A stretch of DNA of 64,000 nucleotides from Candidatus Nomurabacteria bacterium (GTDB lineage: Bacteria > Patescibacteriota > Minisyncoccia > Phycocordibacterales > UBA9973): contig CP060230.1 in the NCBI GenBank assembly GCA_023898605.1, forward strand, positions 67,944 through 131,943. The letters are read 5' to 3'. Every line of letters begins with the position of its first letter. Within the stretch, counting starts at the first letter, position 1. The notes under the pieces were generated by a model, which saw only the letters and a program-made list of their open reading frames with translations, ran no database searches and had not been told where the DNA came from. Of the stretch, positions 8,901 to 42,484 are shown piece after piece. Made by a program: the position numbers and the translations under genes.

Positions 8901-9159
8901 CTCAGAACAAGGAACAGAAAGTATCCACCTTTCTTCTTGGCCAGAATACGATGAGAGCATGACAAAAGACGAGACCGTTATGATTGGTATTCAGATTAAC
9001 GGCAAGGTTCGTGGTGAAGTAGAGGTTGGAGACGAAGATACAGAAGAATCAGTGAGAGAGAAGGTTATGTCTATAGACAAGATAAAACCATGGTTAGAAG
9101 GAAAAGAAATCAAGAAATTTATCTACGTAAGCAAGAAGATTGTTAACATTGTCGTATGA
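5971..9159 (+). CDS. leuS: leucyl-tRNA synthetase with two extra inserted domains
   Basis: Has a HIGH-type motif (HVGH), the CP1 strings TTRADTLFG and AVPAHDERDFEFAKKYGL, and KMSKS. At 1062 aa it exceeds the roughly 800-860 aa I recall for bacterial LeuRS. Confidence 0.95.
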   Translation: MNNYDHKGIERKWQERWEKDGIYTVSDKEENKDNFYTLVEFTYPSGDLHVGHWYAFAVPDIFARYKRMQGYNSLYPMGFDAFGLPAENAAIKLGADPKVWTYEQMDKMRGQFKTMGASFDWDREVVSCDPNYYKWTQWMFNQFLKNDLVYRDTTKVNWCPKDKTVLANEQVVDGKCERCGSEVEQKNQDQWMIRITKYADRLIDDLDILDWPDAIKDAQKAWIGRSEGSEISFSLNYEKEKVKNEYFKFRPELVELIEKGLKTATFRMEAKNVSVGDIVSLINWSDGKESNQKEFDKAKIIKVSEHKLGDLPLDYPGHEKDSSVEKRLARYQEYYGDHITNDSTVYIYEFLPLSIRVFTTRADTLFGVTYVVLAPEHPLVNKLLDQVENKEEVEKYIEETKKKSELERQIGSKDPSTGSGLGKTGVELKGITAINPANGEEVPVWIADYVLAGYGTGAVMAVPAHDERDFEFAKKYGLDSKIVIVNSTGECTDDAISRNVVKSFIEKDGNVYLVRDIGPSGKSYWSLPGGGYEDAEDDISALTREIMEETPFRNIKIGQFIGASRHCYDFKAIKNSRLTKIFYASYDIENKNSNPQVPGNWFPKDEAIRMLLEDGIIIEGNILSNYFEGKINTDNGILINSGNFNEITSEEAKKKITEFVGGKMVKTYRLRDWGISRQRYWGCPIPIVYDPEGKAHAIPDEHLPWILPTDVDHTPDGTPPLARSKELFERTEKIFGEGWKPEVETMDTFVDSSWYFYRYLDNKNEKEFASIDSMDAWMPIDMYMGGAEHTTMHLLYSRFWTKALYDLGLVKDNEAYKMRRNRGLILGPDGNKMSKSKGNVINPDEVVDRLGADTVRLYLCFMGPYGVTVNYPWDPNGVVGVRRFLERVWKLKEKIDPEKKVCRTDPLVHKTIKGVTSDMEEFKFNTAISKMMILSNALEGEDKIVEASYKALLRLLSPFAPHITEELWQSFGHSSSGSEQGTESIHLSSWPEYDESMTKDETVMIGIQINGKVRGEVEVGDEDTEESVREKVMSIDKIKPWLEGKEIKKFIYVSKKIVNIVV

Positions 9160-9196: not shown

Positions 9197-11473
9197 ATGC
9201 TAAAAAAAATCTCTAGAAAAATAACGAGAGGAGATAGACTGCTATTTTTGTTCTTGTCTTTGGGTATGTTTTTGTCTATGACATTTTTCTTACCCGACAC
9301 TTCTCTTATAGATTCTGCTTCAAAAGGTTTTTTCTACTCACTATTTGCATTGGTTATATTTATAGCAACTGTCTCACTTGTTTTATTTAGAAACAGATTT
9401 TCCTTTTCTAGCAGGCCGTTTCTTTATAGTGTTATTTTATTGGTTGTACCACTATCGTTACTTTTGTTTTTGACAAACTCTTTTTCTAGATCTTTTTTGG
9501 GAAGCGATTTTAGTCCAAACACGTATATATTTCTTTTTTCTAGTATTGTATATATTTCTTCAGCGCCATTTTTTGTAAATTCAGAAAGGAGGATAACGAC
9601 ACTACTATTTTTGCCACTCATTGTCTTTCTTATTGCAGCTAGCCTTTCTTTCTTGCAGGTTTCTGGAGTAGATATATTTTCTGGTGAGTTTATAAATCCT
9701 GTAGGTTCATGGGCGGCACTTTCTGTATTGGCTGGACTTATGTTTGTGTTTGTTATGGTTTCGCTCGAGTTTTTCAAACTAAACAAAACAGAAAAAGTTT
9801 TATCTTATATATTGGCAATTTTGTCACTACTTATTTTTACCCTTGTTAGAAACGAGGCGATACTTGTAGCTGTGGGACTTACTTCACTATCGGTTATCTC
9901 TCTCAAGACACTTCTTCCTGGACACAGAGAAGCTAGAGCGCCATTTTACGCGTTCTTTTCGATCATACTTGTAGCACTACTTCTTTTCGTGGGCGGATAC
10001 TTCAGTAATTTCTTGGGGAACACTTTTGGACTTTCTTTTGTAGATATAAGACCATCTTTTAGTTCAACTACTTCTGTCATAAAAAGTAGTTGGGGTGGTG
10101 AGGGATTCCTTGTCGGTTCTGGTATAAACAGCTTCTCTAATTCTTGGAATTTGTATAGACCAGAAGCAGTTATTTCTTCCGATATTGCGTTCTCGAGTTT
10201 TTCAAATGGTTTTGGTTATATAATGACTCTTTTTGGAGAACTTGGTCTTATTGTCGGAGTTGCTTTGACGATATTTTTGATTCATGGATTAATCATGGCT
10301 TGTCGAGTTTCTATGATGGTGGTTAGTGACAAGAGTGAAAATAGAAAAAATATCTTTTTGATTCTTCCACCTATCATGATGCTTTATAGTTTTGCAATAC
10401 TACTACTTTATTCTGGTTCTGTACCAACGGTTGCTTTGTTTGTTTTGAGCTACGCACTTGTACTTGCGTCACAGAGATTCCTTGGCATCGGAAAAACTTT
10501 TAGAATAGATATTTCCAAGGATCCAAGACTTGCATTTGTTTCTATGATTTTTGGCATATTCCTTTCTATATTTGCAGTCTTTTCTATAGCAGGTGTTTCT
10601 TCTCGGATGACTGGAAACTTCTTTTATCAAAAAGCTATAAATAGTGCTAGGGCAGGGAACCTAGATTCATACTACTTATTTACAGACAAGGCATCGAGAT
10701 CGAATCCCGCAGATTTTGCCCTTATAGAGAGAGCAAGAGCAGAAATTTCTATACTCGGTAGAGCGCAAGCTGACGGAACACAGATAGACGAAAATCGTGC
10801 TAGTAATATTTTCTCTAGTGCAGAGAGTTATGCTCTTCGGGCAATAGAGTATGACGCAAGAAACGCAGACAATTGGGCGTTCCTAGGCAACTTATACAAA
10901 AACTTTATTTCAAAAGACAACGAACAGTTTTACCAAAACTCTATAGTCGCCTTTGACAAAGCTCTAGAGTTCCGACCAAACGATCCGTCTATATATCTTT
11001 TCGAAGGAGAAGCTGCTCTTAGAAAAGATGATGTGGCTCTTGCAAGATCTATGGGAGAAAAAGCACTTTCTATAAAAAACAATTATGGAGATGCATTTGT
11101 TTTCTTGATATCACTAGAAAGTAGTATAGAGAACTACAAAGATGCTGTTAGACTTGCTGAAGCAATGGTGGAGAATATACCGAGCATAACTTCTTTCCAG
11201 ATTTTGGGAGAAGTATATGATTTGTCTGGTGACAAAACAAAAGCTAGGAGTGCATACGAAACAGCATACTTGCTTTCTGGTAGAAGCTTTGAGCTTTCAA
11301 ATGTCCTTGCTAGCTTTTATTCAAAATATGGTATAAATGATGGTCTAGATATGCTTATAAGTGACGAGAATTCACTGAGAGGAAATATAGACTATATAAA
11401 CTATCTTCTTGGTCTCAAGAGTAAGCCTGTCGTAGAAGAGACTTCTCCAGAAGAAGAATCTTCCGAAGAGTAA
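9197..11473 (+). CDS. polytopic membrane protein with C-terminal TPR repeats (O-antigen-ligase/Wzy-like candidate)
   Basis: The N-terminal part has more than 10 predicted TM helices. The C-terminal part has TPR-like repeats (AWAFLGNLY, AFDKALEFRPND). Confidence 0.5.
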   Translation: MLKKISRKITRGDRLLFLFLSLGMFLSMTFFLPDTSLIDSASKGFFYSLFALVIFIATVSLVLFRNRFSFSSRPFLYSVILLVVPLSLLLFLTNSFSRSFLGSDFSPNTYIFLFSSIVYISSAPFFVNSERRITTLLFLPLIVFLIAASLSFLQVSGVDIFSGEFINPVGSWAALSVLAGLMFVFVMVSLEFFKLNKTEKVLSYILAILSLLIFTLVRNEAILVAVGLTSLSVISLKTLLPGHREARAPFYAFFSIILVALLLFVGGYFSNFLGNTFGLSFVDIRPSFSSTTSVIKSSWGGEGFLVGSGINSFSNSWNLYRPEAVISSDIAFSSFSNGFGYIMTLFGELGLIVGVALTIFLIHGLIMACRVSMMVVSDKSENRKNIFLILPPIMMLYSFAILLLYSGSVPTVALFVLSYALVLASQRFLGIGKTFRIDISKDPRLAFVSMIFGIFLSIFAVFSIAGVSSRMTGNFFYQKAINSARAGNLDSYYLFTDKASRSNPADFALIERARAEISILGRAQADGTQIDENRASNIFSSAESYALRAIEYDARNADNWAFLGNLYKNFISKDNEQFYQNSIVAFDKALEFRPNDPSIYLFEGEAALRKDDVALARSMGEKALSIKNNYGDAFVFLISLESSIENYKDAVRLAEAMVENIPSITSFQILGEVYDLSGDKTKARSAYETAYLLSGRSFELSNVLASFYSKYGINDGLDMLISDENSLRGNIDYINYLLGLKSKPVVEETSPEEESSEE

Positions 11474-16195: not shown

Positions 16196-16224
16196 CTTGC
16201 CCTGTCTGAAATAGGCGGGGTGAA
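16196..16224 (+). repeat. family-B GC hairpin module (degenerate copy) in the T-loop position of the ghost tRNA
   Basis: cttgccctgtctgaaataggcggggtgaa compares with cttgccccgcctgaaataggcggggtgaa at the Val locus. Confidence 0.65.
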
Positions 16225-16702: not shown

Positions 16703-16963
16703 ATGGCGTGGGTGTATATATTAAAAACTAAATCTGGTAAGTTTTATATTGGTAGCACTATCAATTTAGAGCAAAGATTAAAACACCATAAAGGTGGGAA
16801 TACTCCTTCGACATATAGGTTGAAGTTTGATAGTCTTTTATTGTCTCAAGAATATGATACTTTGAAAGATGCCAGGAGTGTTGAATCAAAATTGAAAAAA
16901 CTCAAACGAAAAGATTATTTACAAAAAATTGTTGAAGATGGTTTTATTAAAATAAAACCCTAA
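16703..16963 (+). CDS. GIY-YIG nuclease family protein (86 aa)
   Basis: Shows VYILKTKSGKFYIGSTINLEQRLKHHKGG. The ATG lies 3 nt after the ghost D-arm CTCAG. Confidence 0.9.
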   Translation: MAWVYILKTKSGKFYIGSTINLEQRLKHHKGGNTPSTYRLKFDSLLLSQEYDTLKDARSVESKLKKLKRKDYLQKIVEDGFIKIKP

Positions 16964-17092: not shown

Positions 17093-17215
17093 GCTCAGTA
17101 CCGACGTCCCGACATGTGGTCGTCGGGAGCACGGAGAGCCGACAGAATCGTCGGCTTTGGTTAGAGCACTCGCCTGAAGAGCGAGGTGTCGGCAGTTCGA
17201 GTCTGCCCCCGAGCA
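17093..17215 (+). pseudogene. 3' part of the ghost tRNA-Phe with a ~57-nt double-hairpin insert after GCTCAG
   Basis: 17157-17216 is a 60-bp perfect repeat of 17008-17067. There is no matching 5' acceptor strand. The insert holds the hairpins tcccgac/gtcggga and gccgac/gtcggc. Confidence 0.6.
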
Positions 17216-17249: not shown

Positions 17250-17327
17250 ATGGTACACTACACTTACATTTTAAAAAGCTTAAAGGATGGCAAGTATTAT
17301 ATAGGGTCAACCTCCGATTTGGGCTAG
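17250..17327 (+). pseudogene. truncated GIY-YIG N-terminal remnant (25 codons)
   Basis: Reads MVHYTYILKSLKDGKYYIGSTSDLG and then a stop. Confidence 0.6.
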
Positions 17328-17346
17328 CTTCACCCCAAAGATGTTC

Positions 17347-17389: not shown

Positions 17390-17914
17390 ATGATCTTTAA
17401 CTTAAAATACTTTATCATGTCGAATAATAATGAAACAGTTGAAAACCCTACCACTTCTGTAGATAAAGTGGTAATTTCAATCTCTAAACGATCGATCTGG
17501 TCATTTATTGGACTGCTTGTGGTAGCTGGCTTCAGCTATCTCCAATGGATAGGCTATTTATTGCCAACCTTTAAGCAGATATTTATTTTGATTGAGGAAG
17601 CAGATGCTTCAATTTTAAGCGTAAGCCAAATAGGGTTGATGTGGGTGCCCGTAATATCGTACGCCCTAGTGGCGTTAAATATCTGTCTTTTTTTTAATAT
17701 ATTTAAGGAATTAAAGAAAGAGAAAGGTCTCATTGCGGGTCTCATTGTGGGTCTCATTTGGGGTCTTTGGGGTCTCATTGCGGGTCTCATTGCGGGTCTC
17801 ACTGCGGGTCTCATTGTGGGTCTCATTTGGGGTCTCACTTGGGGTCTCACTTGGGGTCTCACTGCGGGTCTCATTATGGGTCTCATTATGGGTCTCAAAA
17901 ATGAGTACTCATGA
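17390..17914 (+). CDS. membrane protein with C-terminal (G-L-I/T-x) tetrapeptide repeat array
   Basis: Two N-terminal TM helices are followed by about 14 in-frame GLIAGLIVGLIWGL... repeats. Confidence 0.6.
   Translation: MIFNLKYFIMSNNNETVENPTTSVDKVVISISKRSIWSFIGLLVVAGFSYLQWIGYLLPTFKQIFILIEEADASILSVSQIGLMWVPVISYALVALNICLFFNIFKELKKEKGLIAGLIVGLIWGLWGLIAGLIAGLTAGLIVGLIWGLTWGLTWGLTAGLIMGLIMGLKNEYS
17726..17896 (+). repeat. 12-bp tandem repeat GGTCTCAYTRNG, about 14 units, in-frame
   Basis: I counted the units directly. One unit is shortened to 9 bp. Confidence 0.9.
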
Positions 17915-25006: not shown

Positions 25007-25519
25007 ATGGAAAAATCAAAGAAAGGCTCTCGTGCTATGAGTACTGCTGCAATTTTCGCAATCATTATTTCTGTCGTTGGCTCTTTAATTTTAAGAGTTA
25101 ATACAGAAAATATGGTAATGGATGTTTTACTCGGACTTTTTGTCTTTGGAAAATTTGCCATGACCATGATGTTTACCCAAGGGTGGAAAGTGTTCAACCA
25201 CAAAACAATTCTCGGAATGCCACGCCTTTTGTTTGTTTTTTATATCATTGTTGGAACTCTTTTGGTTTCAATTTTTGTAACAAGCAGACAATTCGGTCCT
25301 GACTTAGCTTCTTCTGCAAAAAACATTCTCGGTTTCGTAATTTCAGCTTCGGCTGGATTGATCGGAACTTTGTATATGTGGTATGCCGGAGTTAATGAAT
25401 GGATGGCAGGTGGTAGTGAATATGATGCACGGATGCAATTCAAAAGTAAAGGTGATTCAGATGAAGTAACCGAGGAAAAAGTTATTAAACTGAAAAACCT
25501 TGGCGTTATTCCATCTTAA
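25007..25519 (+). CDS. hypothetical 4-TM membrane protein
   Basis: I place the start at the ATG at 25007, downstream of the leader hairpin. The protein has hydrophobic helices. Confidence 0.5.
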   Translation: MEKSKKGSRAMSTAAIFAIIISVVGSLILRVNTENMVMDVLLGLFVFGKFAMTMMFTQGWKVFNHKTILGMPRLLFVFYIIVGTLLVSIFVTSRQFGPDLASSAKNILGFVISASAGLIGTLYMWYAGVNEWMAGGSEYDARMQFKSKGDSDEVTEEKVIKLKNLGVIPS

Positions 25520-25644
25520 TATCTTTGCCAGAAAAAATTCGAGCTTCACTAATTTTTTAGTGAAGCTCTTTTGTTTTTCTATTTGCCCGCCCCGCCAAAA
25601 AACAAATTCGTCCGCTTTATTTATTTTGAAAACAGGTTCCATTT

Positions 25645-25765
25645 TGGTGGGCGATACAGGACTCGAACCTGTGGCCTTTTCAACGTCATCCCGCCTATTT
25701 AGGACGGGATAAAATGAACGCTCTAGTTCACCCCGCCTATTTCAGGCGGGGCAAGCTGAGCTAAT
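25645..25765 (-). pseudogene. 3' portion of a ghost tRNA-Val (encodes CCA) with hairpin inserts in the D loop and anticodon loop
   Basis: On the minus strand it reads ATTAGCTCAG[29-nt hairpin]CTAGAGCGTTC[27-nt hairpin insert]TGACGTTGAAAAGGCCACAGGTTCGAGTCCTGTATCGCCCACCA. Confidence 0.6.
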
Positions 25766-25992
25766 TTTTCTTTGTAATCTTTATTTTTCTTTTTTAGCCA
25801 CTTTTCGTGTTTTCTGGCTAGCTCATAATTTTTATATTCTTTGGTGTAAACTAAAACATATGGTTTTAGTTTAGAGGAGGTTTTTAATTTACCACTATTG
25901 TGTTCTTTTAATCGCCTAGTTGGATTATCAGAAATACCCACATAAAAACTTTGGTTTATTTTACTTTTTATAAGATAAACAAAGCAAGACAT
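25723..25992 (-). CDS. GIY-YIG nuclease family protein (89 aa)
   Basis: Shows FVYLIKSKINQSFYVGISDNPTRRLKEHNSG. The start codon lies 1 nt after the tRNA-Val 3' end. The last 14 codons read through the ghost D arm and hairpin. Confidence 0.85.
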   Translation of the reverse strand: MSCFVYLIKSKINQSFYVGISDNPTRRLKEHNSGKLKTSSKLKPYVLVYTKEYKNYELARKHEKWLKKKNKDYKEKLAQLAPPEIGGVN

Positions 25993-25993
25993 G

Positions 25994-26066
25994 TGAGCGA
26001 TAGAGGATTCGAACCTCTGACCTTTCCCACGTCAAGGGAACGCTCTACCGACTGAGCTAATCGCTC
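25994..26066 (-). tRNA. tRNA-Val (anticodon GAC)
   Basis: The cloverleaf folds as GAGCGAT-TA-GCTC-AGTCGGTA-GAGC-G-TTCCC-TTGACGT-GGGAA-AGGTC-AGAGG-TTCGAAT-CCTCT-ATCGCTC-A. Confidence 0.9.
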
Positions 26067-26474
26067 GCTCAAATAAAATTACTACAGTACAAATTGTATC
26101 AATAAAAAATAAAATATGCTCTACTTCACCCCGCCTATTTCAGGCGGGGCAAGCTGAGCTAATCGCTCGCTCAAATAAAATTACTACAGTACAAATTGTA
26201 TCAATAAAAAATAAAATATGCTCTACTTCACCCCGCCTATTTCAGGCGGGGCAAGCTGAGCTAATCGCTCGCTCAAATAAAATTACTACAGTACAAATTG
26301 TATCAATAAAAAATAAAATATGCTCTACTTCACCCCGCCTATTTCAGGCGGGGCAAGCTGAGCTAATCGCTCGCTCAAATAAAATTACTACAGTACAAAT
26401 TGTATCAATAAAAAATAAAATATGCTCTACTTCACCCCGCCTATTTCAGGCGGGGCAAGCTGAGCTAATCGCCC
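26051..26474 (-). repeat. four perfect 102-bp tandem units plus the ghost tRNA-Val 5' end
   Basis: Units start at 26051, 26153, 26255 and 26357, with a partial unit at 26459. On the minus strand each unit contains an AT-rich promoter-like region, GAGCGATTAGCTCAG, a 29-nt hairpin and GTAGAGC. The array ends in GGGCGATTAGCTCAG (26474-26460), which matches the ghost 3' acceptor. Confidence 0.85.
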
Positions 26475-26574
26475 TAGTGGGTTATAGAATATAACAATTG
26501 AGATCAAAAGTCGAATGGTTGCCTTGCCTTGGTTTGTGTTATAGTATCATCCTAAATAAATTTAAGTTTTTTAT

Positions 26575-27243
26575 ATGAGAAGAAGAGATATCAAAGCACC
26601 CGAAGGAAACAGAGTCCTTGTTTTTGCTTCTGGCTCCAAGGATGGAGGCGGTAGTGGTTTCGAGGCTATGGTTACTAGTCCCTACGGACTCAATGTTGTT
26701 GCCGTGGTTTCAAATCATGAAAACGGTGGAGTGAGACAAAGAGCTGATAGGTTGGGAGTACCTTTTATTTTTTTCGACGGACCTTTTACAGAAGAAGGTT
26801 ACAATTCGATTTTAGAAAAAGTTGGAGAAGTTGATCTCATCTTTTTGTCTGGTTGGCTCAAGCTTGCAAAAGGTCTTGATCCGACAAAGACTCTGAACAT
26901 ACACCCTGGTCCACTTCCTCGTTTTGGAGGAAGGGGAATGTATGGGCACCATGTTCACGAGGCTGTGATGGAGGCATACAGGAAGTTCGAGATTGCAACT
27001 TCCGAAGTCAACATTCACTTTGTTACCGACGAGTATGATCGAGGTCCGGTTGTATTCAAAAAGCAGGTATCTATCTATCCGTTTTATACGGTTGATATGC
27101 TTGCAACTGAGGTCAACAAGGTGGAACATCAATTCCAGTCAGAAGTTGCGGCAGCATTTCTGATGGGAAAGATCAGCTGGAGTGGAAAAATGGAGGACTC
27201 TCCAACAACATTTCCAAATTATCTAGGAGTCGCCCCTATGTAG
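26575..27243 (+). CDS. PurN-like formyltransferase (stand-alone N-terminal formyl-transferase domain)
   Basis: Shows LNIHPGPLPRFGG (the NIHPSLLP motif), HFVTDEYDRGPVV (catalytic Asp region) and the N-terminal VLVFASGSKDGGGSG. Confidence 0.75.
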   Translation: MRRRDIKAPEGNRVLVFASGSKDGGGSGFEAMVTSPYGLNVVAVVSNHENGGVRQRADRLGVPFIFFDGPFTEEGYNSILEKVGEVDLIFLSGWLKLAKGLDPTKTLNIHPGPLPRFGGRGMYGHHVHEAVMEAYRKFEIATSEVNIHFVTDEYDRGPVVFKKQVSIYPFYTVDMLATEVNKVEHQFQSEVAAAFLMGKISWSGKMEDSPTTFPNYLGVAPM

Positions 27244-27314
27244 GGCGACTTTTTTATTTTTGACAAAAAAGGCAATATGGGTGTATATTCAGAAATGAAT
27301 CAAACCCTCGCACC

Positions 27315-27857
27315 ATGCAAAACCCAAACTTGATTATTCGGTACATTTTTCCATTGATTAATTCAAATGGAATTGACTCTAGTATTGGATTTTTGACCGA
27401 CACAGAGATACAGGGTTGTAATATACACTTTGTATCCAATTTCTTCTGGAATGAATTTTATCCCACTAAGTATAGTGGAATGGAGATTCTAGAAGAGTGC
27501 ATCAATCAGTCACTCATGGAAAATCCACGAGAAATTTTTTTGTTTCTTGTTCAGATGAAGCAGGCAGACAAACTGATTTCGCGTGAGAAAATACCCATGC
27601 CATGCATTCACCCCAAAGACATGATTCTCGGAAACACTGTTCTGGAAATTCAAAACATTTCAGAACTAAAAAAGATGAGAGGTGGAGTACCTGCTTCGAT
27701 TTCGGATATACCTTATATCGAGGTTGGCTCAAAGAGGAGAGATCATGTCATCTATCCGTTTACCTTTGAGTTCGACATTGATCCAAAAGAAGTCGGAAGG
27801 CCATTTTTTGGAATCGACAGCGTCGAATTTCCAAACCACAAAAAACAGATATCTTAA
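27315..27857 (+). CDS. hypothetical protein, paralog 1 of a tandem pair
   Basis: Shares blocks with 27944..28504: FWNEF..KYSGMEILE vs YFWKQ..KYFGMEKLE, and IPMPCIHP vs IPMPMIPP. It has its own promoter and terminator. Confidence 0.5.
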   Translation: MQNPNLIIRYIFPLINSNGIDSSIGFLTDTEIQGCNIHFVSNFFWNEFYPTKYSGMEILEECINQSLMENPREIFLFLVQMKQADKLISREKIPMPCIHPKDMILGNTVLEIQNISELKKMRGGVPASISDIPYIEVGSKRRDHVIYPFTFEFDIDPKEVGRPFFGIDSVEFPNHKKQIS

Positions 27858-27864
27858 ATCACAA

Positions 27865-27888
27865 GCACCCCACGTCGGGGTGCTTTTC
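27865..27888 (+). terminator. terminator hairpin gcaccccacgtcggggtgc plus T-run, fused to the next -35 TTGACA
   Basis: Read directly from the sequence. A near-identical module lies at 28511-28534. Confidence 0.7.
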
Positions 27889-27943
27889 TTTGACAAGAAA
27901 TATTATATGGGTGTATATTCAGAAATGAATAAAACCCTCAGTT

Positions 27944-28504
27944 ATGAAAGAAACATATCTCATTTTGAGACAACTGTACTTTACCAGTATAGGAGAACCT
28001 TATATCTTCGTAAGCGAAGATGAACTTTTCCACGGAAGGAATTTTAACACCAGGGTTGAAGAAATTTATATTGTTTCTGAATACTTTTGGAAACAAAACC
28101 CTCATAAGTACTTTGGAATGGAAAAATTAGAATCTTTAATTTCTGAACGCGTTGAAGATCATAGGTCTGCACGTATTATTTTTTTCTTTATGGAGAAAAA
28201 TTATCTTGATAAAATTATCAAGAGATCTTGTATTCCTATGCCAATGATTCCTCCCGGGTGTATTGCCTACGGTATTGATATTCGCCCCATGCTTTTTTAT
28301 TCTATAGAAATCGATAAAAATCTTCGCATCGGACATATCGGAGACAAAGAAGCACCCATTGTGTGGACAGATGAGGAAAAACCAAGACCTTTGGTTGGAT
28401 CAGTATTTTTCAATTATGATTCCATGTTAAAATATCCGGACGGCATAATACCTTTGTATATAGCTGGTCCAGGCTTCAATGACGCTCGCTTTAAGGTTAT
28501 CTGA
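27944..28504 (+). CDS. hypothetical protein, paralog 2 of a tandem pair
   Basis: See the evidence for paralog 1. Its 5' region is nearly identical over 35 nt to that of paralog 1. Confidence 0.5.
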   Translation: MKETYLILRQLYFTSIGEPYIFVSEDELFHGRNFNTRVEEIYIVSEYFWKQNPHKYFGMEKLESLISERVEDHRSARIIFFFMEKNYLDKIIKRSCIPMPMIPPGCIAYGIDIRPMLFYSIEIDKNLRIGHIGDKEAPIVWTDEEKPRPLVGSVFFNYDSMLKYPDGIIPLYIAGPGFNDARFKVI

Positions 28505-28510
28505 AATAGT

Positions 28511-28534
28511 GCACCCCGCGTCGGGGTGCTTTTC
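28511..28534 (+). terminator. terminator hairpin gcaccccgcgtcggggtgc plus T-run
   Basis: Read directly from the sequence. Confidence 0.7.
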
Positions 28535-28583
28535 TTTTGACAAAATCTGATTTTTGATGTAATTTAACAAAAAATTGAAAACT

Positions 28584-29135
28584 ATGGTTAAGAAATATTT
28601 ATTTCCCAGGAACAGACTCGTTTTGACATTCAGGGGTTTAAGATTCACAATTGCTTTTGGATACGACAAAAACTGTTTTGGAGGGAAGAATAATATATTT
28701 TTTTCTTCTCTACTTTATTCTCAGGTCTATTTCTTTTTGGAGGTCCCCAATGACCTGGGCGGTATCGAAGCTTTTCATAGAATCCAGCCATCTTCTGGTA
28801 AAAAAGTGTATGCCGAAGGTGCTGGGGGACCGTTTTTCTACCCAAGTGAATTTTTTGATTTCATGGTTTCGGATATTTCTGAAGCAATTATGAATAATAA
28901 ATCACAGCAAGCAGAAGAATGGAAAAGGTTTATGAATAGCATCGTCGTTATAACCGTTGGTCCCCAGAAAAATATCGTGGGTTTCTGGTTCGAGGATGAT
29001 GTGATTCATGAGATTGGTGGAGCAGTTCTCACCAAAAGGTTCGAAGATCTCCAGCACGTGTTTGAATCTTTTCCAAGACGTATGGTTTTGGCTGCTGTAA
29101 AAAAAAGGGCGGGAAACAACAAAGGAAAAAGATAA
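28584..29135 (+). CDS. hypothetical protein
   Basis: I prefer the ATG at 28584. No family was recognised. The gene is followed by the terminator aaaaagcgccacttggcgcttttt. Confidence 0.45.
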   Translation: MVKKYLFPRNRLVLTFRGLRFTIAFGYDKNCFGGKNNIFFSSLLYSQVYFFLEVPNDLGGIEAFHRIQPSSGKKVYAEGAGGPFFYPSEFFDFMVSDISEAIMNNKSQQAEEWKRFMNSIVVITVGPQKNIVGFWFEDDVIHEIGGAVLTKRFEDLQHVFESFPRRMVLAAVKKRAGNNKGKR

Positions 29136-29565
29136 CTCAAAAAGCGCCACTTGGCGCTTTTTATTTTTGTGAAGTTTTGCCACCCTCCCGTTCGTGTGTG
29201 CGTAAAACCCCGCTCGTAAGGACGAGAGGGGGAGGTGCGAGCGGGGCTCCCTAAAAACAAAACCACTCATATTATAAGTGGTTTTGGAGCAAGGTATACT
29301 CATCTGTCGCTATCTAAGTTACCAGTTCTTATACAACTGCTCATCAAGCTCTAAAGATATTGATAACTATTGCTCAGTCTGACCTTTATTTTCCGCGTCG
29401 TTGGCGCAAAGCACTTGCGGCAACAGATTTTTCTTTTTTTCGAGGGAGGTCCTTTCTCAAAAGTTTTGATGCAAGTTTGCCAACTTTTTTACTAGTTTTT
29501 GCCATAAAATTATATAAATTAATTATTAATATCGACCAATATAGAAATATGTGGAAAACTGTACA

Positions 29566-29594
29566 TTGAAAACTTTCTATATATTTTCTATAAT
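29566..29594 (+). promoter_or_regulatory. promoter TTGAAA-17-TATAAT giving a near-leaderless lexA-MTase mRNA
   Basis: The TATAAT ends 7 nt before the ATG at 29602. The promoter is flanked and overlapped by the inverted repeat atatagaaa (29539-29547) / tttctatat (29574-29582). Confidence 0.55.
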
Positions 29595-29601
29595 ATCATA
29601 C

Positions 29602-31050
29602 ATGATTACAAAAAAGCAAAAAAATGTGCTGGATTTTATAAAAAATTTTCAGCAAAAAAATGCTATATCCCCATCATTAGAAGAAATTAAGAAAAAATTT
29701 GGTTTAGCTTCCGTTTCTACAGCTTCTTATTATGTTGAAAAACTAGAAAGCAAAGGATATTTAAAAAAAGACGACAAACAACACAGAGGAATATCGGTTT
29801 TTGAAAACGAAAGCATGGTAAAAATACCTTTACTTGGCGTAATTGCTGCTGGAGAACCAATACAATCCATAGAAAACCGTGAAGAGATTGCACTTCCAAA
29901 GAGTAGGATAGGCAACAACAATAATGTTTTTGCATTGAGGGTCTCAGGAGACAGTATGATCGACGAAAATATACAAGACGGTGATGTGGTTGTTGTAAGA
30001 GAAACTAAAAACCCCACAAACGGTGATAAGGTTGTCGCATTAATAGATCGAGAGAATGTTACTTTAAAAACTTTTTATAAGGAAAAAAAACAAATTTTAC
30101 TTAAACCAGCAAATAAAAAATATGACTCGATTGTCATAGATAAAAATAGAGAATTTGAAATTCAAGGAGTGATGATTGATATTGTAAAACAATCATTTAA
30201 CAATCCTGTAGATATTATATTTCCAGAAAAGGCGCAGAAACGAAAAACGACTATTCCTCTAAATAAAGTAGTGTGTGGAGATTGTGTTGATGTGATGAAA
30301 AATATACCAGACAACTCCGTTGACATGGTCGTTACTTCTCCACCTTATGATGATGTAAGAAACTATAATGGTTTTAGTTTTAACCTACACGACACAGGTA
30401 AAGAAATCTTTAGAATTTTAAAAGACGGTGGTGTTGTAGCTATGGTTATCCAAGATCAAACAAAAAATTTTGGTAAAAGTTTAACATCTTTTAGAACTAT
30501 CGTTGATTGGGTGGATAATATAGGTTTTAAATTATTTGAAACAGTAATTTATAGAAAACATGGTACCGAGGGGGCATGGTGGAAATATCGTTTTAGGGTA
30601 GATCATGAATATATGCCAATTTTTATTAAAGGAGAAAGACCCAGCTATTTTAATAAAGAAAATCTTAAGATACCCTCAAAGCATGGTGGAAAAGTAATGA
30701 CTGGTAGTGGAAATAGAAAGACTGATGGAACAACAACAAAAACAGTTACAAGACCTATAAATTTAAATAAATGCCGTGGAACTATTTGGGATTATTTGAA
30801 TGCAGGTGATAAGAATCCATTAAAAAGAAAACATCCAGCTGTATTCCCAGATCAAATTCCTGTGGATTTTATAGATTGTTTTTGTCCGCCTAAAGGCATA
30901 GTCCTTGATCCGTTTGTAGGTTCAGGATCAACACTAGTTGCCGCTAAAAAGCTCGGGAGAAATTATATTGGGATTGATATCTCACAAGAGTATTGTGATC
31001 TAACAGAGGAAAGATTAAAAAAGGATATACCAAACACCTTATTTAAATAG
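29602..31050 (+). CDS. LexA (wHTH plus S24 peptidase) fused to a beta-class N4/N6 DNA methyltransferase
   Basis: The N-terminal half has LexA features: cleavage site VIAAGEP, the Ser motif VSGDSM and the Lys motif VTLKTFY. The C-terminal half has MTase motif IV (TSPPY) and motif I (DPFVGSGST). The frame is continuous. Confidence 0.85.
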   Translation: MITKKQKNVLDFIKNFQQKNAISPSLEEIKKKFGLASVSTASYYVEKLESKGYLKKDDKQHRGISVFENESMVKIPLLGVIAAGEPIQSIENREEIALPKSRIGNNNNVFALRVSGDSMIDENIQDGDVVVVRETKNPTNGDKVVALIDRENVTLKTFYKEKKQILLKPANKKYDSIVIDKNREFEIQGVMIDIVKQSFNNPVDIIFPEKAQKRKTTIPLNKVVCGDCVDVMKNIPDNSVDMVVTSPPYDDVRNYNGFSFNLHDTGKEIFRILKDGGVVAMVIQDQTKNFGKSLTSFRTIVDWVDNIGFKLFETVIYRKHGTEGAWWKYRFRVDHEYMPIFIKGERPSYFNKENLKIPSKHGGKVMTGSGNRKTDGTTTKTVTRPINLNKCRGTIWDYLNAGDKNPLKRKHPAVFPDQIPVDFIDCFCPPKGIVLDPFVGSGSTLVAAKKLGRNYIGIDISQEYCDLTEERLKKDIPNTLFK

Positions 31051-31053
31051 ATT

Positions 31054-32079
31054 TTATTCCATCTTATCAGGAGTTTCTAAGGTGTATTCTATATTTATTC
31101 CACTTGTCATTGCCCAAGATAATGGGTTTTTATCAAAAAACGCCTTGAAATTAACATTTGTTAATGTTTTTCCGTCTTTTTCGAAACTGCTTTTTGTAAA
31201 TTTATACAATTTAAATCCATTCCATCTCCACGAATTTTTCTTGTATTCCCACTTAGTTAAAGAGCCAAGCAATGTTAAGAATTTTTCAATTCTCTCCACT
31301 GCACCTTGATTAATTTTATAGCTAGTTCCATCTTCCTCAGTATTGTAATGTTCGCCATCTTTAGTTGATATTTTTAATCTATCACCCCTTTCGTGAGGAA
31401 TACTTATTTTATCCCTTTCTCTAAAGAAATTATCCATCTCTCTCATCAAGTTTATAATTGTTGTATATTTTTCATTTTCAAAAATTACATTTAAAGGGCT
31501 ATTTTTTTTATCAGCATCAAGATAATTTAACCAATTTAAAACATTCTCCGGATAACTAAATAAAACATTGAAAACACCATCTGTGAAATATAGTGGCGGT
31601 ATAGAATCCTCATCCAAAGCGACACGAGTGTGTTCGTTTACTATTCCCATAAGAATATGAATTGTTGCCAGTGGATATTTAAGACGAAAGTCATGTTTTC
31701 CGTCATACTCTCTTAAATTATTTGGCTGGATACAGTTTTTAAATTTTTCATCCCAATTTGCAGGTTTATTATTTTTATTTAAAAGCAACATATGGTGACC
31801 CAAACTACGAATATCGCCTCTGGAGATTTCCATGTCTAAAAAGATACAATCTTTTGGTTTAATTCCATCCTTTAAAACCATAACCTTCCCATCATAAAAA
31901 CCTTCTATAGTCCAATCAAAATAATGAGACATGAACAGCCCACATAGCAAACCGTCACTATCCGGACTAAGAATTGCTTTATGATTTCTCTCAACGATCC
32001 AAGGATATTTTTTGATTAAATCTTTATAATCAATTTTATCATTGTGTCTATTTTCTAATAATCTCTGTATATTTGACAT
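31054..32079 (-). CDS. putative type II restriction endonuclease
   Basis: The call rests on context. The gene is convergent with the MTase (3-bp gap) and 4 nt downstream of a C-protein-like HTH gene. No family was recognised by eye. Confidence 0.45.
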   Translation of the reverse strand: MSNIQRLLENRHNDKIDYKDLIKKYPWIVERNHKAILSPDSDGLLCGLFMSHYFDWTIEGFYDGKVMVLKDGIKPKDCIFLDMEISRGDIRSLGHHMLLLNKNNKPANWDEKFKNCIQPNNLREYDGKHDFRLKYPLATIHILMGIVNEHTRVALDEDSIPPLYFTDGVFNVLFSYPENVLNWLNYLDADKKNSPLNVIFENEKYTTIINLMREMDNFFRERDKISIPHERGDRLKISTKDGEHYNTEEDGTSYKINQGAVERIEKFLTLLGSLTKWEYKKNSWRWNGFKLYKFTKSSFEKDGKTLTNVNFKAFFDKNPLSWAMTSGINIEYTLETPDKME

Positions 32080-34260: not shown

Positions 34261-34310
34261 AGTCCTGCATAGTCTTAGCAAACATAGTGAACTCTGTCAT
34301 CAATATATAC

Positions 34311-35594
34311 ATGACAGAAATAATAAAAGACAATTTAAAGTATTGTTTGTACGCCCGCAAATCAACCGAAGCAGAAGAAAAACAAGCTCTTTCTATTGAT
34401 TCCCAAATCAAAGAAATGAAGCAAATAGCTGATCGTGAAGGGTTAAATATTGTTGAGATTCGTCGTGAATCTCATAGTGCAAAAGAATCAGGTCAACGAC
34501 CAGTATTTGAAGAAATACTAAAGGATATAGACGACGGCATATTTAACGCCATTATCACTTGGGCACCAGATAGATTAAGTCGTAATGCAGGAGACCTAGG
34601 AAAACTGGTTGATCGTATAGATCAAAAGAAACTAACTCAAATCAAAACTTTTGGTCAGACATTTACAAACTCACCAAGTGACAAATTTCTTCTTATGATT
34701 TTGTGTTCTCAAGCAAAACTTGAGAATGACAACAAGAGTATTAATGTGAAGCGAGGTATGAGAGCACGGTGTGAAATGGGATTATGGCCAGTACAGCCAC
34801 CAACTGGATATAGAAAGCCAAATGAGAGATTGTCTAAATGTGAAGTAGAGATTGATCCAGAAAGAGCACCGGTTATCAAACAAATTTTTGAAAAGATTGC
34901 ATACGAACGATGGAGCGGAATGAGAGTATATTCGTGGTTGCGATATGAATTAAATTTTAAAACACACAAAGGATTCTATTTAAGTGTCGGAAATGTATTT
35001 AAGATAATCAACAACACCTTTTATTACGGACGATTTGAATTTCCACAAGGAAGTGGAAACTGGTATGACGGAAAACACACACCAATAATCAGTAAAGAAC
35101 TTTTTGATGATTGTCGATCTGCAATTAAAACACAGGTCATAAAAACCCATGGAAAAGAGTTTGCGTTTACTCGAATGGTGAAATGTGGATCGTGCGGATC
35201 GGGGATTACTGCTGATGAGAAGTTCAAGAAGTTGCTAAACGGAGGAGTAAATAGACATGTCTATTATAGGTGTACGAAGTCGAAAGATAGAAAATGTACG
35301 AATCCTGCAATAAACGAAGACGATCTATTAAAAGAATTTCAGAAAATGGCAGGAACTTTGGAACTTAATGAAGTACAACTTAATGAGAAATTAAATCTTG
35401 AAATTAAGAAATTCAAAAAACTTCAAGCGATGTTTTTAGGAAAGGACAACCCAGCAGATATACAGAAAGTTGATCTCAGAAATTACATGAAATTCGTTTT
35501 GAAAGACGGAACAATTTTAGAAAAACGATCGGTTCTTGATTGTATAAAAAACGATCTAGTTTTGAAAAATAAGATCATAATAGTTAAAGAGTAA
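34311..35594 (+). CDS. large serine recombinase
   Basis: Shows YARKSTEAEEKQALSIDSQ (catalytic Ser region), a recombinase domain and a Cys-rich zinc ribbon (CGSCGSG...YYRC). I prefer the ATG at 34311. Confidence 0.9.
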   Translation: MTEIIKDNLKYCLYARKSTEAEEKQALSIDSQIKEMKQIADREGLNIVEIRRESHSAKESGQRPVFEEILKDIDDGIFNAIITWAPDRLSRNAGDLGKLVDRIDQKKLTQIKTFGQTFTNSPSDKFLLMILCSQAKLENDNKSINVKRGMRARCEMGLWPVQPPTGYRKPNERLSKCEVEIDPERAPVIKQIFEKIAYERWSGMRVYSWLRYELNFKTHKGFYLSVGNVFKIINNTFYYGRFEFPQGSGNWYDGKHTPIISKELFDDCRSAIKTQVIKTHGKEFAFTRMVKCGSCGSGITADEKFKKLLNGGVNRHVYYRCTKSKDRKCTNPAINEDDLLKEFQKMAGTLELNEVQLNEKLNLEIKKFKKLQAMFLGKDNPADIQKVDLRNYMKFVLKDGTILEKRSVLDCIKNDLVLKNKIIIVKE

Positions 35595-35710
35595 AACTAA
35601 CTTTTTAAACAAAAATACCTAACGAGATCATCGTTAGGTATTTTTGTTATTCTTTATAGCAAGGGTATTTAGTGACCCTTGTCGAGTGCTCGAACTAGCA
35701 CTCGACTCTG

Positions 35711-35782
35711 TGACCCTACGGGGAATCGAACCCCGATTACCGGCTTGAAAAGCCGATGTCCTAACCGTTAGACGATAGGGCC
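35711..35782 (-). tRNA. tRNA-Glu (anticodon TTC)
   Basis: The reverse complement is GGCCCTATCGTCTAACGGTTAGGACATCGGCTTTTCAAGCCGGTAATCGGGGTTCGATTCCCCGTAGGGTCA, which folds as a cloverleaf. Confidence 0.9.
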
Positions 35783-36088: not shown

Positions 36089-36140
36089 ATATTTGTAATA
36101 GATAAATTTCTATGTATAATCAAAAAAAACCCCTGCACCT

Positions 36141-36710
36141 ATGAAAAATATGCAAACCCTCTCCGACCATCAATTGGTCCAAATGTTCATGAGTGATGGA
36201 AATGAACAAGCTTTTGGTGAAATCTATCTTCGGTACGAAAATCCCGTGAGAGATTTTATTAAAAAATTGTTTTACGGCAGTAAAATGCCAAACTGTCAGG
36301 ACGAAGATGATATCGTTCAAGAAACCTTCCTGAATGTACATAGTGCCTTGAAAAGAGGCCTGTACAAGAATGAAGGGAGAATGAAGGCATGGATCTTTAC
36401 TGTCGCAAAGAATCTTTTTCTGACAATTTTCCAAAAAAACAAAAGGAAGCCAGTGTCGGAACTCAATGATTGGTATTCTAAAATGGTGTTTTTGCCAGAT
36501 ATAGAGAACAGAATGTTCTCCGAAAGGGCTTTCGAATTTCTACTAAAAAGCGGTAGAGATTATGATTGTTTGTTTTTGTATGCGATTGGTTTGAAATACA
36601 ACCAAATTGCAGAAGTCATGAATATCTCCAAAAACACCGTAGGGGCAAAAATATTTAAACAAAGAAAATCTTTGGAAGAGGTTTTTGCCCCAGAGAGATC
36701 AGAACGTTGA
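36141..36710 (+). CDS. ECF-type sigma-70 family factor
   Basis: Region 2 reads DIVQETFLNVHSAL...AWIFTVAKNLF. Region 4 reads the HTH YNQIAEVMNISKNTVGAKIFKQRKSL. Confidence 0.8.
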   Translation: MKNMQTLSDHQLVQMFMSDGNEQAFGEIYLRYENPVRDFIKKLFYGSKMPNCQDEDDIVQETFLNVHSALKRGLYKNEGRMKAWIFTVAKNLFLTIFQKNKRKPVSELNDWYSKMVFLPDIENRMFSERAFEFLLKSGRDYDCLFLYAIGLKYNQIAEVMNISKNTVGAKIFKQRKSLEEVFAPERSER

Positions 36711-38723: not shown

Positions 38724-39668
38724 ATGCACCTTAACAAAAGCCAACAAAAAGAAGTACAAAAATTTCTACAGATGGTAGGTGCTAAAAAGCCACTTACCTT
38801 AGAAGAAGAAAAAAGACTCTTTGAAAAGAGTCTTTCAAAAGACCAAATTAAAAAATTATTGATTTCGCACAATGCTCGTTATATTGTGCATGTAGTGAAA
38901 GAACACCTTTACGAAGGTGTTGAAATAGCTGACCTTCTACAAGAAGGATTGGTAGCGACTTATGTCGCTGCCGATAAATTTGACCATACTCGTGGTTTTA
39001 AATTTATCAGCTACGCTACTCATTACATGAAAGCGTATATTTTGAAATTTTGTTCAGAGGAGATTAATTTTAGCCTAAGTGAGATGCTAAAACACATTAA
39101 GGTAAAAAAAATTTCTTCAATTTTTGAACAAAAGTTTGGGATATACCCTCTAATTCAAGATATTGCCTTTGACGAGGAGGTGATGGAATACCTTGGAATT
39201 AGTAGTGGGAATCTTAAAAAAATTTTTTACAAAATAGAGGTTCTTTCCTTGGAAGCTACTTACAAGGAAAGAAGGGATGGAGAATCCTATACCTCAAGTG
39301 TTTCACCAATCGATGTGTTGATTGATGAAACCTTCGCGATCGATCCTGAGATGGAGAAGGAGTCCTTCAGGATGGACTTAAAAGAGTTTTTCAAAATCTT
39401 AAATATCCGTCTAAGGACGGACTTGTCCTTTCTTATCTTCAATATAGGTTCGCAAGAGCTTATAAAAGATTCGAAGGACAATCTCGTCCAAGAATTGATG
39501 GAAGAATATCCATCAGGATATGAAGTTGACTTGGAAACCCTGGGACTCGTCTTGGGGATTAGCAAGGAAAGGGTAAGGCAAAGGATTCATAAGAGCATCT
39601 CTGAGCTAAGAAAAAGGGAGAAGCTTGTGAGTCTGTTTTTTGAAAAACATAGAAGCCTTCTTAATTGA
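38724..39668 (+). CDS. sigma-70 family RNA polymerase sigma factor (group 3/4-like)
   Basis: Region 2 reads DLLQEGLVATYVAADKFDHTRGFKFISYATHYMKAYI. Region 4 reads LGISKERVRQRIHKSISELRK. Confidence 0.8.
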   Translation: MHLNKSQQKEVQKFLQMVGAKKPLTLEEEKRLFEKSLSKDQIKKLLISHNARYIVHVVKEHLYEGVEIADLLQEGLVATYVAADKFDHTRGFKFISYATHYMKAYILKFCSEEINFSLSEMLKHIKVKKISSIFEQKFGIYPLIQDIAFDEEVMEYLGISSGNLKKIFYKIEVLSLEATYKERRDGESYTSSVSPIDVLIDETFAIDPEMEKESFRMDLKEFFKILNIRLRTDLSFLIFNIGSQELIKDSKDNLVQELMEEYPSGYEVDLETLGLVLGISKERVRQRIHKSISELRKREKLVSLFFEKHRSLLN

Positions 39669-42206: not shown

Positions 42207-42484
42207 ATCCCGTTAGAGATTAATCATGTTTTATGTTTACGTATTACAGAGTAAAAAAGACGGGAAAATGTATACAGGAAGTACCAAAGATCTTCGGAAG
42301 CGCTTTTTGCAACACGAAAAAGGATTATCAACTTGGACAAAAGGAAGAGGTCCATTTATAATGGTTTATTATGAAGCATGTCTCAATGAGCAAGATGCTC
42401 GGTCGCGTGAGACATATTTAAAATCAGGTATGGGAAAGCGTTATCTAAAAAATAGACTTAAGCGCTTCCTATCTCTAACGGGAT
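42207..42484 (+). mobile_element. minimal GIY-YIG element bounded by perfect 14-bp terminal inverted repeats
   Basis: atcccgttagagat (42207-42220) is the reverse complement of atctctaacgggat (42471-42484). ATGAA/TGAA is present on both flanks. Confidence 0.65.

Follow-up and report, generated by a model that had tools for sequence, protein, structure and literature searches.

The erp (ospE/ospF/elp) loci of Borrelia burgdorferi contain divergent paralogs that are preceded by highly conserved 5′ promoter/operator DNA (the "upstream homology box"), with the transcription start site (TSS) located 14 bp before the start codon, and one set of DNA-binding proteins co-regulates all copies (PMC9112904). 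Here, we describe a comparable arrangement of two adjacent, diverged genes with near-identical expression signals in a genome of Candidatus Nomurabacteria (Patescibacteria, or candidate phyla radiation, CPR). The genes, referred to as cassettes 1 and 2, lie in a 64-kb stretch of DNA (the window) of a genome assembled as a 619-kb contig, within a block that extends from a purN-like formyltransferase gene to an unrelated orphan, gene 4 (block locus tags H6791_00445 to 00470; proteins USN94884-USN94889). As in erp, the leader is short and the 5′ non-coding DNA of the paralogs is conserved well above the coding DNA (34/35 and 48/56 identical positions versus 48% identity). The erp loci differ in being spread over cp32 prophage plasmids and in their products, surface lipoproteins whose leader peptides are conserved, and they have an operator of ~145 bp, bound by BpaB, BpuR and EbfC; the window has two adjacent chromosomal copies, which encode cytoplasmic proteins, carry a module of just 35-56 nt and share a conserved terminator as well.

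Tandem paralogs with near-identical promoter/5′ regions and highly divergent coding bodies are also found in the vsp/vlp lipoprotein families of Mycoplasma. These encode repetitive surface antigens and undergo phase variation via site-specific inversion or poly-A tracts; unlike them, the cassettes have no such switch or repeat. Integron arrays resemble the locus in their head-to-tail single-gene units with short, imperfectly palindromic conserved sequences in between. Integron cassettes are, however, promoterless, end in attC and need an adjacent IntI tyrosine integrase. Since every unit in the window has its own promoter and Rho-independent terminator, and no tyrosine integrase is found among the neighbours, an integron cassette array was rejected; the one recombinase in the vicinity, ~5 kb downstream of the block, is of the large serine type.

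The module, terminators, paralogs and formyltransferase described in the original prediction were all found where it had placed them. A copy of the 35-nt module, ATATGGGTGTATATTCAGAAATGAAT[C/A]AAACCCTC, is present upstream of each paralog (27275-27309 and 27905-27939; coordinates are those of the window, on the plus strand unless stated otherwise). Repeat alignment bears out the claim of a shared upstream module: 34 of 35 nucleotides are identical, and the single difference between the copies is at 27301 (C/A). The module occurs exactly twice in the window, with 0 copies expected from shuffles, and is embedded in a 56-nt direct repeat (27254-27309 and 27884-27939; 86% identity, 48/56) that includes the −35 element. 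Both copies are non-coding, with in-frame stops upstream, the gap to the ATG is 5 nt in one case and 4 nt in the other, and the copies stand in different frames. A leaderless upstream open reading frame (ORF) starting at an ATG inside the module (27295 and 27925) was considered and rejected, since the peptides (12 and 32 aa) share just MN(Q/K)TL and are out of frame with the genes.

Both cassettes are preceded by promoters of the σ70 type, with −35 and −10 hexamers at a spacing within 16-18 nt. At 27260-27289 (cassette 1) as well as at 27890-27919 (cassette 2), TTGACA and TATATT are separated by 18 nt, and 11 of 12 positions match the consensus. The cassette 1 TSS predicted from these signals is at ~27294-27297, and module copy 1 would accordingly extend from about −21 to +14; it holds the −10 element and a palindrome, ATTCA-GAAA-TGAAT (27287-27300). 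The leaders of ~20 nt are unstructured (z of +0.9 and −0.5) and lack a Shine-Dalgarno sequence. This is usual in this genome, in which Shine-Dalgarno motifs are essentially missing and −10 boxes are located 8-25 nt 5′ of start codons. A search of Rfam gave no match within 25500-29700 except tRNA, i.e., no structured cis-regulatory RNA was recognized there.

A stable hairpin followed by a T-tract ends all four genes of the block (ΔG of −14.4 to −16.5 kcal/mol, z of −4.3 to −5.6), as expected of Rho-independent terminators with a GC-rich hairpin and a U-tract. Directly after each T-tract there is a −35-like hexamer: TTGTGA in the case of gene 4, TTGACA for the three genes before it. Downstream of the two cassettes, the hairpins read GCACCCC[A/G]CGTCGGGGTGC (27865-27883 and 28511-28529; the motif can also be written GCACCCCRCGTCGGGGTGC), with one difference at the loop-closing position. 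Together with their T-tracts they are identical at 26 of 27 positions and run into the next TTGACA, as had been claimed: copy 1 (27865-27891; ΔG −16.5 kcal/mol, z −5.6) overlaps the −35 element of cassette 2, and copy 2 (28511-28537; ΔG −15.8 kcal/mol, z −4.8) leads into the TTGACA (28537-28542) of gene 4's own, different promoter.

The cassette 1 gene (27315-27857) encodes a divergent family member of 180 aa, and the cassette 2 gene (27944-28504; H6791_00455) encodes a protein of 186 aa that is nearest to the relatives described below. The two proteins are 38% identical over 71 aa according to BLASTP (E 3e-11) and 36% identical over 150 aa in a global alignment, which agrees with the initial description of divergent paralogs with little protein similarity. 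A codon alignment guided by the proteins gives 48% nucleotide identity; of 50 identical residues other than Met and Trp, just 18 share their codon, and synonymous sites are saturated. Against this coding background, the probability of 34/35 identities in the module is 3e-10, and that of 26/27 in the terminator is 7e-8. The similarity between the units collapses 4-5 nt before each ATG and resumes solely at the terminator, so the earlier statement that non-coding DNA is far better conserved than coding DNA is correct for this locus. Cassettes 1 and 2 represent an old tandem duplication of one promoter-gene-terminator unit.

NCBI starts cassette 1 at an internal Met, yielding a product of 125 aa (P0002, H6791_00450). 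The family alignment, with its conserved N-terminal R, E and FW, supports a 180-aa ORF and a truncated public annotation. An exhaustive hidden Markov model search of 1.84 billion cluster representatives with a two-paralog profile defined a family of six clusters in all, comprising the two window proteins and four others (178-186 aa; E 7e-10 to 4e-5). A protein homolog search returned just the window's own two proteins and P0006, and a locus search seeded with A4 found no further family loci in genomes or metagenomes. With cassette 2, the family members of other genomes reach 54-60 bits, more than the 46 bits of cassette 1. Conservation is mostly confined to the N-terminal 100 residues (R9, E31, V40, F44-W45, G55, L59-E60, K86 and R90), and the proteins are acidic (pI 5.0-6.0) and without a hydrophobic segment. 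An AlphaFold (AF2) model of cassette 2 built from six sequences (pLDDT 76.9, pTM 0.77) has an alpha/beta N-domain and a beta-rich C-domain; an earlier model from 2 sequences was unusable (pLDDT 37). The unit thus encodes a soluble, acidic, two-domain protein of ~180 aa from a tiny family present only in Nomurabacteria-like metagenomes and genomes. With six clusters, a conserved N-terminal half and a model at pLDDT 77, the cassettes are genuine genes of a real family.

The remote-homology searches that had been proposed for the three orphans (the two cassette proteins and gene 4) produced no match in Pfam, NCBIfam, PHROGs or PADLOC and none in PDB, nor, for the paralogs, at the level of fold; for the paralogs they uncovered a family. 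Foldseek found nothing similar to the cassette 2 model in PDB or among BFVD viral models at E ≤ 0.001, profile searches of PDB sequences and Pfam with the family gave no match, and no phage or viral homologs of cassette 2 and gene 4 were found. A PD-(D/E)xK nuclease, suggested by SEDE...E-x-K motifs, was rejected, since the window copies do not conserve E-x-K and the fold searches gave no nuclease. Nor did the searches give grounds for assigning the paralogs a regulatory or immunity function. Gene 4 and a sigma-factor-like gene at 36141 were also rejected as hidden family members (hhalign probability <1%).

The family gene is single-copy in the relatives, and the tandem pair is specific to the lineage of the window. 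In three of the four relatives' contexts the gene lies beside tRNA genes. In one of them, L002 (with L003; protein P0003), it directly follows genes for PrsW, a class-I aminoacyl-tRNA synthetase (aaRS), TsaD, adenylate kinase and tRNA-Val, which is also the neighbourhood of the window, and the housekeeping proteins are 57-68% identical to those of the window; L002 is clearly syntenic with the window. In L005 (L005-L008; P0004), the gene is located between tRNA-Val/GIY-YIG/beta-lactamase-like genes and tRNA-Glu, with a serine recombinase adjacent. L002 and L005 both have it between tRNA-Val and tRNA-Glu. Another relative (P0005, L009) is found near an HTH-peptidase M78 gene.

A pattern similar to that of the window is seen when the L002 and L005 family genes, which come from different samples, are compared. 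Upstream of the ATG, 56 of 63 nt (89%) are identical and include a different promoter, TTGC(A/T)T-17-TATAAT, and a similar terminator that spans the stop codon is shared as well. Identity is just 37% between the proteins and 51% in the coding DNA, and 30 of the 60 residues in common have the same codon. It therefore appears to be a property of the family that the expression signals are conserved while the coding body between them is hypervariable. Since the two loci are from different samples, conversion between tandem copies cannot explain this case.

Variation within the block was assessed in independent short-read assemblies of close strains that cover it (L010-L012 and L019-L021). A divergent tract at 27135-27347, from the 3′ end of the formyltransferase gene into cassette 1, is present in all three assemblies, with a proportion of synonymous differences (pS) of 0.19. 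Module 1 lies within this tract and has 1 single-nucleotide polymorphism (SNP) in 35 nt (T27300C), while SNPs flank it on both sides and 3 of the 5 positions of the linker between the module and the ATG are changed. This SNP and the difference at 27301 split the module into invariant blocks of 25 nt (ATATGGGTGTATATTCAGAAATGAA) and 8 nt (AAACCCTC). Among co-occurring strains, at least three haplotype tracts make up a mosaic in the hypervariable cassette 1, where assemblies differ in the SNP tracts they carry (27416-27506 and 27560-27658) and where contigs break. No variation is seen in cassette 2 in the 3 assemblies that cover it, or in module copy 2 in L010, L011 and L012. Codon changes between strains are mostly synonymous in the formyltransferase gene (5/6), and 5 of 10 are non-synonymous in cassette 1. 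Gene 4 of L021 diverges by ~25% in its C-terminal tract but has an identical terminator. The block had been described as accessory, but every strain assembly covering the part from purN to gene 4 has it. What varies between strains lies to either side and includes mobile insertions: a GIY-YIG/tRNA-Val element on the left and a LexA-methyltransferase block on the right.

We favour, with moderate confidence, a reading in which the module is a core promoter plus a candidate TSS-proximal operator that is under purifying selection and co-regulates two insulated, monocistronic paralogs. Judging from consensus signals, each copy would be transcribed alone from a near-consensus σ70 promoter, and a strong intrinsic terminator, its U-tract overlapping the following −35 element, would insulate it. 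The module would act as a DNA-level regulatory sequence that combines the −10 element with the region around the start site and with a candidate operator overlapping them, the core of which may be the palindrome ATTCA-N4-TGAAT. Purifying selection would keep it constant, and one putative DNA-binding factor would regulate both diverged paralogs. Given the near-identical promoters and terminators, the paralogs are most likely switched on and off together. The position of the module across the −10 element and its different frames relative to the two ATGs point to a role at the DNA level, and such a role is most economical because the leaders are unstructured and Rfam has no match. No convincing motif common to the module and the upstream region of the LexA-methyltransferase gene, such as a LexA box, was seen by inspection.

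Several observations weigh against this reading. The palindrome has just 5+5 bp, and its outermost pair is broken by the strain SNP. The selection test on module 1 (P = 0.005 for at most 1 change in 35 nt) relies on just two haplotypes, with tract boundaries set post hoc. A loose scan that allowed up to 14 mismatches, together with scans for sub-motifs, revealed no further module copies in the rest of the window, and GGGTGTATATTCAGAAATGAAT used as a query gave 0 matches in genome, viral and metagenome contig collections, which do not contain the source genome, so even the window copies were missed. The promoter of the relatives' family genes is a wholly different sequence, and the constraint on the module would for this reason be lineage-specific. 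Finally, the near-identity of the terminators, loop included, is not needed for terminator function and therefore fits homogenization as well as selection.

Homogenization is part of the strongest alternative, concerted evolution or cassette exchange, in which the flanks are made uniform by gene conversion or serve as homology arms for swapping divergent coding alleles between strains or lineages, so that recombination and not regulation would be what constrains them. The original prediction had offered a regulatory module or gene conversion as explanations. The former is the better supported, by the single SNP in 35 nt against a pS of 0.19 and by the recurrence of the pattern in L002 and L005; exchange, which is compatible with regulation, has perhaps something over a quarter of the probability. 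It would readily account for the 26/27 identity of the terminators, and the region is recombinogenic, as can be seen from the mosaic structure of cassette 1 and from the assembly breaks inside it. The divergent C-terminal tract of gene 4 in front of an unchanged terminator, the higher similarity of cassette 2 to members from other genomes than to its neighbour, and the conserved ends with a hypervariable interior in L002 versus L005 all point the same way. Against it, the islands of homology are just 27-56 nt long and flanked by unalignable DNA, and such lengths are at or below what is usually needed for efficient RecA recombination. Moreover, the recombination tracts between strains do not stop at the module but leave SNPs on both sides of it, the module copies are not fully homogenized (27301 differs between them, and the strain variant differs at 27300), and conversion within one genome cannot account for the conservation between L002 and L005. 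A bolder version, in which the units are exchangeable cassettes for hypervariable Nomurabacteria-specific cytoplasmic proteins engaged in an arms race (with phage, host or competitor) and the promoter and terminator double as shared signals and recombination anchors for allele swaps, is in our view rather unlikely.

It is also unlikely that the module is an RNA-level element, the transcribed part of which (AAUGAAUMAAACCCUC) would be a translation-initiation or stability signal for mRNAs without a Shine-Dalgarno sequence. The invariant block AAACCCUC does occupy positions −13 to −6, as a ribosome-binding site would, in a genome that lacks Shine-Dalgarno motifs; neither the two copies nor the strain variant differ in AAACCCTC, while the next 4-5 nt vary freely; and a similar sequence, AAACCCCTGCACCTATG, precedes the sigma-factor-like gene at 36141. 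Yet ~20 of the 35 conserved nucleotides are upstream of the predicted TSS, the canonical anti-Shine-Dalgarno sequence has no complementarity to AAACCCUC, which is not convincingly shared by any other of the 47 gene starts inspected, and the leaders have no significant structure. The leader of the sigma-factor-like gene (36120-36143) resembles that of cassette 1 (AAACCCTCGCACCATG), either by chance or as a shared initiation signal.

The original prediction compared the layout with immunity or defence gene arrays. On such a reading, the cassettes would be fast-evolving genes with an immunity, anti-phage or anti-defence role, placed in a defence island by a tRNA hotspot. We consider this improbable. 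Orphan, acidic, fast-evolving proteins and the strain mosaic of cassette 1 would fit it, as would the neighbours: a GIY-YIG element, a LexA-DNA-methyltransferase fusion, a 341-aa protein with 42 members in its 90%-identity cluster, a large serine recombinase nearby and, in one relative, the HTH-peptidase M78 gene. PADLOC-DB v2, however, contains 0 families that match the four block proteins at E ≤ 0.1, the neighbouring methyltransferase alone producing a match; the three orphans have no match in PHROGs either, no phage or viral homolog was found, and a toxin or nuclease partner is absent. The genomic contexts of the homologs give no direct support for defence islands: the relatives have single genes, which lie beside tRNAs in three of four contexts, and the one in L002 follows housekeeping genes (TsaD, adenylate kinase). 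The block itself is common to the strains, with the mobile pieces outside it. The original prediction had set one scenario against itself, a recent and trivial duplication of the segment that would leave the genes as similar as their flanks. Nothing but the tandem layout speaks for it, and the alignments virtually exclude it: identity is 48% in the coding DNA, with saturation at synonymous sites, and similarity ends sharply 4-5 nt before the ATG.

The first gene of the block (26575-27243; NCBI H6791_00445) encodes a divergent PurN-like formyltransferase of 222 aa and ends in an intrinsic terminator (27225-27253; ΔG −16.5 kcal/mol, z −4.6) whose T-tract runs into the next −35 element. Residues 13-190 of 222 match Pfam Formyl_trans_N (PF00551) with 63 bits. 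NCBIfam PurN (TIGR00639) is the best model, above PurU, Fmt and sugar formyltransferase, but its score of 65.2 bits is below the equivalog cutoff of 150.1. PurN structures are also the best PDB matches, with the NxH...D catalytic residues aligned; LNIHPGPLPRF aligns with LNIHPSLLPLF, and VTDEYDRGPV with VTEGMDEGPI (PurN 4ds3 and 3av3). The protein thus resembles PurN (TIGR00639; PDB 4ds3, 3av3, 1c2t) in its Formyl_trans_N fold, NxH...D residues, HPxxLP loop and similar size, and differs from it in an altered and lengthened phosphate-binding loop (SGSKDGGGSG). At E ≤ 1e-10 there are 3336 relatives, and the 120 listed are 52-60% identical and come from Nomurabacteria, Pacebacteria, Uhrbacteria and other Patescibacteria.

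No other purine genes are present in the window, and no association with purine genes was seen for the homologs in L013/L014. Relatives at 54-60% identity are, however, head-to-head with purL (L015/L016) and with purD (L018), and with homologs beside purD and purL elsewhere, the protein is probably a genuine divergent PurN. The catalytic motifs and the missing purine neighbours had been recognized correctly in the original prediction; the view of an odd accessory gene does not hold for a Patescibacteria-wide family, and homologs in metabolic operons, which had been named as evidence against the prediction, were encountered for this gene. Most likely, this is the organism's glycinamide ribonucleotide transformylase, a divergent PurN of CPR type with pathway genes that would be scattered, and it stands outside the cassette system.

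At the other end of the block, gene 4 (28584-29135; H6791_00460) encodes a basic protein of 183 aa (pI 9.5) with three cluster members. It is unrelated to the paralogs and has no match in Pfam, NCBIfam, PHROGs, PADLOC, PDB or phage records. Its terminator hairpin (29139-29162) marks the right-hand end of the block common to L021 and the window: identity between the two continues through 29175, and the L021 sequence beyond 29176 is unrelated. The LexA-methyltransferase block begins at ~29176, where strain L021 has the unrelated sequence instead. LexA (HTH plus S24 peptidase) is fused there to an N6/N4 DNA methyltransferase (29602-31050), and the gene is convergent with that of the 341-aa orphan (31054-32079, minus strand), whose 42-member cluster at 90% identity comes from many CPR contigs and which has no Pfam or PDB match. 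The two are possibly a mobile restriction-modification-like pair with SOS-type control. In front of them, a GC-rich inverted-repeat region is located in AT-rich DNA (29176-29300; ΔG −33.7 kcal/mol, z just −1.9). Adjacent to it are a minus-strand terminator-like hairpin (29286-29258) and, upstream of the latter, an unannotated 39-codon Lys/Arg-rich ORF, MAKTSKKVGKLASKLLRKDLPRKKEKSVAASALRQRRGK, read by eye (~29390-29507, minus strand).

The surroundings of the block are mainly housekeeping genes (LeuRS, MurJ, LepA, class-I aaRS, TsaD, class-II aaRS, MraY/FtsW/MurG-type genes and GluRS), with tRNA-Val at 25993-26066 and tRNA-Glu at 35710-35782, both on the minus strand. Besides the sigma-factor-like gene at 36141, a second one is located at 38724. 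The interval between these two tRNA genes is ~9.6 kb in the window and ~1.8 kb in L005. The serine recombinase gene (34287-35594) is convergent with tRNA-Glu, and the same pairing is found by the family gene in L005 (2340-3321), the recombinases being 28% identical.

Left of the block, a perfect tandem repeat of 102 nt × 4.1 (26052-26472) overlaps tRNA-Val. Its unit consists of the tRNA-Val 5′ end, the upstream promoter region of the tRNA and the reverse complement of the GIY-YIG 3′ end encoding ..LAQLAPPEIGGVK*; the copy number may be uncertain because the short-read assemblies L010 and L019 collapse or gap the array. The region 25655-26478 shows presence/absence polymorphism: L020 (1-80) joins window position 25765 directly to 26470 and thus lacks the GIY-YIG gene, tRNA-Val and the repeats, and L019 (2980-3260) is a further locus covering this polymorphism. 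The strain-variable GIY-YIG/tRNA-Val element is ~0.7 kb. At the "empty" site there is a continuous tRNA-like gene, with a GGGCGAT/ATCGCCC-ACCA acceptor stem and D and T arms of normal form, that two related GC hairpins (CCCCGCCTGAAATAGGCGGGG and CCCGTCCTAAATAGGCGGG) interrupt; ARAGORN assigned inconsistent identities to the hairpin-interrupted gene. The last base of tRNA-Val is also the first of the GIY-YIG ORF, the 3′ end of which restores the 5′ part of the interrupted tRNA. This looks like a mobile tRNA-plus-GIY-YIG element that homes into a tRNA-like gene and is comparable to T4 SegB (PMC2330249).

Similar pieces occur elsewhere in the window. A GIY-YIG ORF (16706-16936) is just upstream of tRNA-Phe, and a partial second tRNA-Phe copy (17153-17207; Rfam, 31.9 bits), preceded by GC hairpins, is followed by a truncated GIY-YIG start (~17250-17330). 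There is a further GIY-YIG homolog at 42232-42423, and the hairpin motif is also found at 16201-16219, after tRNA-Arg. The 3′ end of tRNA-Val abuts the ATG of the next gene in the window (25990-25995) and in L002 (~9420-9425), the gene being GIY-YIG in the former and adenylate kinase in the latter; tRNA processing would release a leaderless mRNA, which fits the missing Shine-Dalgarno motifs and the very short leaders. Elsewhere, the leucyl-tRNA synthetase (1062 aa; 5971-9159) has ASCH (248-352) and NUDIX (506-610) domains that flank the editing domain, and a tandem repeat of 12 nt × 14.6 (GGTCTCATTGCG; 17726-17897) lies inside an ORF (17390-17914) without a Pfam match.

The value of the present analysis is mostly corrective: the formyltransferase is a probable PurN, one paralog is mis-annotated as truncated, and the "accessory block" is the part shared among strains. 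The arrangement itself is real and has a sound statistical basis, but it is fairly ordinary, a new small example in a CPR genome. It contributes a small protein family that is unexplained by sequence or fold libraries and is mosaic among co-occurring strains. Were the exchangeable-cassette reading true, the locus would be a CPR-specific diversification locus. To our knowledge, almost no promoters or regulators have been defined in CPR bacteria of reduced genome; if the module is an operator, it would provide a compact 35-bp handle on transcriptional regulation in such an uncultivated bacterium.

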